This document shows, piece after piece, positions 20,541 through 21,635 of a stretch of 64,000 bases of DNA. The notes under the pieces are model-generated. The model ran no database searches. It was not told where the DNA came from and was given only the letters and a program-made list of their open reading frames with translations. How positions within the stretch are numbered: the stretch's first letter is position 1; the number at the start of each line of letters is the position of its first letter. The DNA comes from Shigella phage sb1. The position numbers and the translations under genes are program-made. The stretch lies in sequence record PQ666539; one strand, 5' to 3'.

Positions 20541-21635
20541 ATGGCAATTGTTAAAGAAATAACTGCTGATTTAATTAAAAAGTCCGGTGAGAAAATTTCA
20601 GCCGGACAGAGTACTAAATCAGAAGTAGCAACTAAAACATACACCGCCCAGTTTCCAACTGGGCGTGCTAGTGGTAATGACACTACAGGGGACTTCCAGG
20701 TAACAGATCTATATAAGAATGGATTATTATTTACTGCATAAAATATGTCATCTAGGGATTCTGGAAGTCTTAGATCGATGAGATCTAACTACTCTTCTTC
20801 ATCTTCGAGTATTTTAAGTACAGCTAGAAACACTATTAGTAGTACAGTATCAAAACTATCAAATGGATTAATATCAAACAATAATTCAGGAACAATAAGT
20901 AAAGCTCCTGTCGCAAACATTCTTTTACCGAGATCTAAATCTGACGTTGATACATCATCACATAGATTTAATGATGTTCAAGAAAGTATTATCAGCAGAG
21001 GTGGAGGTACTGCTACTGGTGTGTTAAGTAATATTGCTTCAACTGCAGTATTTGGGGCACTGGAAAGTATAACACAAGGTATAATTGCTGATAATAATGA
21101 ACAGATTTATACGACAGCCAGAAGTATGTATGGTGGTGCTGAGAATAGAACTAAAGTGTTTACATGGGATTTGACTCCACGTTCAACAGAAGATTTGATG
21201 GCTATTATTAATATCTATCAATATTTTAACTATTTTTCTTACGGTGAAACGGGCAAATCTCAATATGCTGCTGAAATAAAGGGGTATTTAGATGATTGGT
21301 ATCGTTCTACGTTAATTGAACCTTTATCTCCGGAAGACGCAGATAAAAATAAAACACTATTTGAGAAAATGACATCGAGTTTAACTAACGTTCTAGTAGT
21401 TTCAAACCCGACAATTTGGATGGTGAAAAACTTTGGTGCAACTTCTAAATTTGATGGAAAAACGGAAATATTTGGCACAGGCCAAATACAAAGCATCAGA
21501 TTTGATAAAACACCTAATGGTAACTTTAATGGATTAGCTATTGCTCCAAACCTCCCTAGTACATTTACACTTGAGATTACTATGAGAGAAATTATCACGT
21601 TAAACCGTGCTTCTTTATATGCGGGGACTTTTTAA
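20541..21635 (+). pseudogene. 48: baseplate-tail tube junction protein gp48, interrupted by in-frame TAA at 20739..20741
   Basis: ORFs 20541..20741 and 20745..21635 share a frame; 365 codons match T4 gp48 (364 aa). Confidence 0.85.

Follow-up and report, generated by a model that had tools for sequence, protein, structure and literature searches.

A premature TAA in gene 48 of Shigella phage sb1 is probably a base error within an unselected layer of G:C>T:A changes

The reading frame of gene 48 in the sequence record of Shigella phage sb1 (PQ666539) is interrupted at codon 67 by an in-frame TAA. Judged from sequence comparison, this stop is very probably a base error in the record, a C that was read as A. 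It is best read as a data-quality artefact that is no property of the living phage, and not as an ochre mutation, a recoded stop or a split gene. The analysis covered a stretch of 64,000 nucleotides of the record (the window). On this stretch a layer of G:C>T:A changes is superimposed, at about 1.2% of the G/C positions, on a normal Tequatrovirus (T4-like) genotype. These hits are random as regards where they lie, which strand and codon position they affect and what they do to the coding, and a hit on GAA or GAG, GGA, TCA or TAC creates a stop; the TAC codon of Tyr67 in gene 48 is one such site.

The interruption of gene 48

Gene 48, which encodes the baseplate tail-tube cap or junction protein gp48, lies at positions 20541–21635 on the plus strand and comprises 364 codons and a stop. 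When the whole frame of 365 codons was translated, it read cleanly (...DLYKNGLLFTA-stop-NMSSRDSGSL...) except at codon 67, where the TAA occupies positions 20739–20741 (+). The earlier note had described gene 48 as cut at this point with the frame continuing beyond the stop. The cut was confirmed by comparison with the relative 4E10, which has TAC, and the continuation by translation of 20541–21635. In the output of the ORF finder the gene appears as two ORFs, one of 66 aa (20541–20741) and one of 296 aa (20745–21635). With Tyr placed at codon 67, residues 1–364 aligned to T4 gp48 (PDB 5IV5, chain U) with E=5e-228, and the restored protein was 98.4% identical to gp48 of phage Ec_YwIITB1. The gene order 29-48-54 is that of the annotated relatives, with gp29 at 18760–20532 and gp54 at 21635–22600 on either side of gene 48. 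By homology and by gene position the product thus falls within the gp48 family, and its frame is uninterrupted except at codon 67.

The relatives are uniform at this codon, with TAC (Tyr) found for T4 gp48 and for about 500 related phages. The statement in the earlier note that T4 has Tyr at this position proved correct: Tyr67 of T4 gp48 (5IV5_U) sits in the identical motif NGLLFTAYNMSSRDSGSL. Tyr is also kept at the corresponding position of a distant solved homolog, 9F4A_BM (NGLLFTAYDF). The same note had proposed a reference alignment as a check; this was run, and T4 gp48, 4E10 and the other relatives all gave Tyr or TAC. Compared with phage 4E10, the C>A change at 20741 is the sole difference across 121 surrounding bases. 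When a 71-mer around the TAA was compared with 499 matching phage records, none was 100% identical, and the best was exactly one base off. A 32-mer bearing the TAA had no match in the viral, metagenome or genome contig collections.

Together with gp54, gp48 is located on top of the baseplate dome, where the two proteins form the platform for polymerisation of the gp19 tail tube (PMC3004832). A fragment of 66 residues would be a null allele.

Gene 48 carries four G:C>T:A changes among its 386 G/C sites, which equals the rate for the window as a whole. Besides the C>A at 20741, these are a C>A at 20988 (CTT>ATT, L152I), a G>T at 21086 (ATG>ATT, M182I) and a C>A at 21477 (CCA>ACA, P313T), all on the plus strand and all private to the window. 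At 45 sites in the gene such a change would create a stop, so that 0.55 stops are expected at a rate of 1.2%, and one or more would occur with a probability of 0.42. Hence, the stop in gene 48 is accounted for as a chance outcome of the G:C>T:A process.

One further private change in the gene falls outside the main error class. It is a T>G at 21480, which converts codon 314 from TGC to GGC (Cys314Gly). It lies 3 bases from the C>A at 21477, and the two together turn ...FGPCQ... of T4 into ...FGTGQ....

Premature stops across the window

Since gene 29 and alt appeared truncated in the list of ORFs, the genes of relatives were translated and aligned to the window. For the first 45 kb we used the annotated genes of Ec_YwIITB1, the closest relative (96.7% identity over 24 kb), and 21 stops were found. 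For the remainder, the genes of phage pSs-1 were aligned likewise and gave 7 more. The window therefore holds 28 premature in-frame stops, spread over 21 genes. Many of these genes are essential, among them gp22, gp23, gp27, gp29, gp32, gp34–36, gp48 and gp51. By type, 22 are TAA, 3 are TAG and 3 are TGA. The earlier note implied a lesion particular to gene 48, and this was not borne out, as 27 further premature stops, in 20 other genes, belong to an unselected G:C>T:A process.

In the following account, the codon given is that of the relatives and the stop is TAA unless another is named. Upstream of gene 48, gp22 is interrupted twice, at Ser25 (TCA; 5097–5099, +) and Glu115 (GAA; 5367–5369, +). 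The major capsid protein gp23 is interrupted at a Leu (TTA; 6672–6674, +), and this is the sole stop made by a T>A change. Stops at GAA codons follow at Glu11 of uvsW.1 (14130–14132, +), Glu8 of uvsY (15196–15198, -) and Glu102 of gp51 (16664–16666, +). Two more are found in gp27, a TGA at Gly194 (GGA; 17689–17691, +) and a TAA at Glu341 (GAA; 18130–18132, +), and gp29 has a TGA at Gly65 (GGA; 18952–18954, +).

Downstream of gene 48 the stops are at first all on the minus strand. They affect Ser93 (TCA; 22641–22643, -) of a 96-aa hypothetical gene, Glu178 of alt (TAG for GAG; 24504–24506, -), Tyr57 (TAC; 30391–30393, -) of a 71-aa hypothetical gene, Glu22 (GAA; 34742–34744, -) of a 78-aa hypothetical gene and Glu29 (GAA; 38072–38074, -) of the Rz-like spanin gene. 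A 167-aa gene has TAG in place of GAG twice, at Glu134 (38251–38253, -) and Glu72 (38437–38439, -), and rnlA is also hit twice, at Glu183 (GAA; 39293–39295, -) and, with a TGA, at Gly132 (GGA; 39446–39448, -). In nrdA two adjacent TAA replace GAA GAA, at Glu124 and Glu125 (43452–43457, -), and in gp32 a stop replaces Glu9 (GAA; 48265–48267, -). The remaining six, for which the codon is that of pSs-1, are all on the plus strand. Four are in gp34, at Ser371 (TCA; 51772–51774, +), Glu394 (GAA; 51841–51843, +), Glu681 (GAA; 52702–52704, +) and Glu1185 (GAG in pSs-1, TAA in the window; 54211–54213, +); the others are at Glu209 of gp35 (GAA; 55164–55166, +) and Ser190 of gp36 (TCA; 56285–56287, +). 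The TAA pair in nrdA represents the closest two hits, and the overall spacing is still consistent with a Poisson process.

The interrupted alt gene is the first of two tandem alt-like ADP-ribosyltransferase genes, at 22983–25037 and 25044–27095 (both -), which share about 42% identity with each other. The same tandem arrangement is present in pSs-1 and its relatives.

The relatives have sense codons at all 28 sites. Up to 45 kb (21 sites) the comparison was with Ec_YwIITB1, sb2 and pSs-1; for gp32 it was with sb2 and pSs-1, and past 50 kb (six sites) pSs-1 was the only relative compared. For 27 of these 28 stops, a single G>T or C>A step on the coding strand leads to the stop from the relatives' codon (GAA or GAG, GGA, TCA or TAC). 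The residues replaced are Glu (17), Ser (4), Gly (3), Tyr (2) and Leu (1). None of the 28 arose from a Lys, Gln or Trp codon, though AAA and CAA are also one step from TAA. A search for frameshifts was negative: all 80 ORFs of pSs-1 that were compared (at least 90 aa, with a match in the window of at least 85% identity) aligned in one piece, with coverage of at least 95%.

One could suppose that the TAA in gene 48 is decoded or bypassed, by reassignment of the codon, by programmed readthrough, or by a split gene that terminates at the TAA and restarts three bases downstream at the ATG at 20745, giving pieces of 66 aa and 296 aa. The frame is indeed otherwise unbroken, and the ATG stands straight after TAA-AAT. 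In phages known to be recoded, an amino acid is inserted at TAG or TGA in late genes; a single stop type is involved, its positions are conserved among relatives, and there is usually a suppressor tRNA. The window resembles such phages in having in-frame stops inside essential structural genes. It differs in that all three stop codons occur in frame in place of five different amino acids, are private to the window and, with the exception of the stop in gp23, stand for whichever sense codon is a single G>T or C>A change away, while the terminators are unchanged, normal gene ends in the window still being TAA (44), TGA (16) and TAG (3). Moreover, the stop in gene 48 is absent from about 500 relatives. 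As for a restart, the ATG at 20745 is merely the conserved codon for Met69, and no purine run resembling a Shine-Dalgarno sequence was seen in the approximately 20 bases before it (TTATTATTTACTGCATAAAAT). Nor does the window show any sign of selection keeping the stops. Decoding, bypass or splitting of the gene is accordingly given a probability close to negligible. Reassignment in particular was rejected, as no single stop type has ceased to act as a terminator and the stops are shared with no relative examined.

Stops present at once in the genes for the scaffold, the major capsid protein, the hub, the tape measure, the single-strand-binding protein and the long tail fibre are non-viable. 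Since no phage would be viable with all these stops together, the layer of G:C>T:A changes can never have been exposed to selection; and since a phage could not survive such a load, the TAA in gene 48 is best read as an error of sequencing, library preparation or assembly. The other interrupted genes of the window most likely have the same cause.

Substitutions private to the window

To place the stops among all substitutions, four relatives (Ec_YwIITB1, sb2, Ec_MI-02 and pSs-1) were mapped on the window, and 44,905 positions were covered by all four. A substitution was called private where the window differs while the four relatives agree. There were 670 private substitutions, 198 of them G:C>T:A (C>A, 103; G>T, 95). 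The private transitions (A>G, T>C, C>T and G>A pooled) numbered 351, and the other three transversion classes had 15–62 each. When each relative was taken in turn as the focal genome, only 10–39 private G:C>T:A changes and 0–1 stops were found. The excess in the window over the relatives was confined to this class, and no other class was abnormal.

The coding effects of the classes were then compared. The G:C>T:A changes comprised 21 synonymous, 144 missense and 19 nonsense changes, with 72, 68 and 44 at codon positions 1, 2 and 3, respectively. Substitutions of all other classes were mostly synonymous. For AT>GC there were 164 synonymous, 19 missense and no nonsense changes (codon positions 1/2/3, 15/9/159), and for GC>AT 108 synonymous, 40 missense and no nonsense changes (35/13/100). 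The pattern of these two classes is normal for differences that have evolved while purifying selection acted, and the private differences other than G:C>T:A look natural.

For the expectation without selection, the effect of a G>T or C>A change was enumerated at all 15,255 coding G/C sites. Of such changes, 9.1% would be synonymous, 79.2% missense and 11.7% nonsense. For the 184 hits in coding sequence, this corresponds to 16.7 synonymous, 145.8 missense and 21.5 nonsense changes, against 21, 144 and 19 observed (chi-square p=0.49). As the observed counts fit the unselected expectation, the nonsense changes are not depleted at all, and such undepleted stops must lie outside any functional genome, whether they are artefacts or products of hypermutation.

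The distribution of the changes was equally featureless. The affected G/C sites amounted to about 1.2% overall and to 0.5–1.9% per 2.5-kb bin, in an even spread. The spacing was Poisson-like, with 3.0% of the gaps at 5 nt or less against 2.2% expected. No clusters or strand blocks that would suggest single bad reads were found, and the orientation of the changes was random (runs test, z=-0.41). On the coding strand, C was hit at 1.24% and G at 1.17%, without any coding-strand bias. The effect of trinucleotide context was weak, ranging from 0.49% for ACA, the lowest, to 2.26% for GCA, the highest; CCG was not enriched (1.48% against the mean of 1.2%). Outside the aligned genes there were 14 of the 198 changes, a rate of about 1.4%, which is similar to the 1.2% of coding sequence. 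Miscalling of modified cytosine, of the kind seen in nanopore data, is unlikely, because the 80 ORFs have no indels and the hits depend only weakly on context.

These results also bear on a genuine ochre mutation in gene 48, either as a conditional lethal maintained in a suppressor host or as a defective variant within a mixed population. Laboratory work on T4 has classically made use of nonsense mutants of the tail genes, and conditional-lethal mutants of T4, those in gene 48 included, have a single stop or a few, all of the same type, and grow on a matching suppressor host. The change TAC>TAA is a one-step change at a conserved Tyr, and a suppressor inserting Tyr would restore wild-type gp48. 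As in T4 amber and ochre mutants of tail genes, an early stop in gene 48 would abolish the tube cap and block polymerisation of the tail tube; a gp48 cut at residue 66 of 364 loses nearly the whole of this tube-platform protein, which counts against a real mutation. The window is unlike those mutants in having 28 stops of three types, standing for Glu, Gly, Ser, Tyr and Leu in 21 genes, together with 144 unselected missense changes. Since three stop types stand for five amino acids, no single suppressor can rescue the window. Furthermore, the stop in gene 48 shares its class and rate with the other 197 unselected changes. We regard a genuine ochre allele as highly improbable, and the version that depends on a suppressor was rejected on the grounds of the multiple stop types and of the unselected G:C>T:A changes (p=0.49, 144 missense). 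No tRNA gene was found in the 64-kb window; going by the map of T4, T4-like phages have their tRNA cluster elsewhere in the genome.

Origin of the changes and the underlying genotype

Costello et al. (2013, PMC3616734) document C>A and G>T changes as the mark that oxidation of DNA leaves when samples are prepared. This artefact is characterised by a low allele fraction, by a signature in read orientation and by a preference for CCG>CAG (PMC3616734). The window is like the 8-oxoG artefact (PMC3616734) in that its excess belongs to the same class (G:C>T:A), indels are absent and the rest of the sequence is correct; it is also like it in a non-biological origin, the changes in the window bearing no sign of selection. 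It is unlike that artefact, which is sub-clonal and favours CCG, in that its changes stand in the consensus at about 1.2% and CCG is unenriched. The most likely physical cause would be oxidation of guanine, of the 8-oxoG type, during preparation of the DNA or construction of the library, with the oxidised bases then fixed into a low-coverage or low-input consensus. We hold this specific cause, an oxidised template at low coverage or low input, with moderate confidence. Another substitution-only corruption of the record fits equally well.

The same chemistry could have acted on a real molecule. The record would then be faithful to actual DNA that was hypermutated or damaged at G:C>T:A after the last round of selection, by oxidative damage, a mutator condition or a host process attacking guanine, with one or a few templates captured. 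Single-particle or very-low-input amplification of a non-viable genome could provide such a template. The alteration of one chemical class and not of all 12 substitution types, which suggests a physical or chemical process instead of generic noise, is in keeping with this, as are the lack of indels and the strand-symmetric, Poisson-spaced changes, which random lesions on duplex DNA would give. However, the same data are equally expected from a library artefact, and random lesions that arise independently would not become fixed in the consensus of a phage population. To our knowledge, no anti-phage hypermutation of this kind exists. That the record is faithful to such a molecule is therefore considered very unlikely. 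The more specific claim, that the 64 kb are an accurate read-out of a T4-like molecule hypermutated in vivo at about 1/80 of its G:C pairs, we consider extremely improbable. If hypermutation in vivo had followed the last productive replication, the TAA in gene 48 would be a footprint of that process, and its cause could be intense oxidation of guanine or damage done to phage DNA by a host process.

Under an error in the record, the true phage would be expected to encode an intact gp48 of 364 aa with Tyr67. Beneath the error layer, the phage looks like a genuinely new Tequatrovirus genotype of mosaic make-up, whose identity to the records searched is about 97% at most. Locally, the best phage records reach 95.8–98.5% identity, and for gene 29 the best has 95.8%. 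A 36-mer of gene 29, chosen as a genotype marker because it has 8 natural private differences but none of the G:C>T:A class, had no match in any of the three contig collections (viral, metagenome and genome), and no error-free twin of the phage came to light. In the assembly index, neither the 296-aa product of the downstream ORF nor the gp54 of the window had an entry. Patches with 8–12 private substitutions other than G:C>T:A per 36 nt were observed at 19140–19175 (gene 29), 36313–36348 (pseT) and 44683–44718 (td). These dense patches look like a recombination mosaic derived from lineages absent in the collections searched.

In T4, td carries a group I intron. The thymidylate synthase gene td of the window (44387–45244, -) is one unbroken frame of 286 aa, as in the relatives fetched. 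Since it aligns as a single uninterrupted frame, the lineage is one without the T4-type td intron.

Milder excesses of private G:C>T:A changes, with a bias toward missense, were also observed in two relatives that are among the closest. Ec_YwIITB1 (PQ356294.1) has 17 missense against 14 synonymous changes of this class, and its annotation gives the major capsid protein and hoc as two CDS each. Shigella phage sb2 (PQ666540.1) has 25 missense changes, 7 synonymous changes and one stop, and its tail sheath is annotated as truncated. This suggests that similar error layers are present in deposited genomes of this clade.

The main value of the present finding is as a warning on quality: premature stops, split ORFs and unusual residues in the window are all suspect. 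With about 1.2% of the G/C positions wrong, spurious missense changes would number at least 144 over the 45 kb that were compared base by base, and the window as a whole would have 28 spurious stops. Automated gene calling will break up or shorten 21 genes. In the proteins predicted from positions 1–45500, spurious substitutions would affect about 1 residue in 100, and in gp48 they would include L152I, M182I and P313T. The comparison used here, in which private substitutions are sorted by class and their coding effects are set against the unselected expectation, is a reusable test that requires no reads, and such a test separates error layers from true pseudogenisation or recoding.
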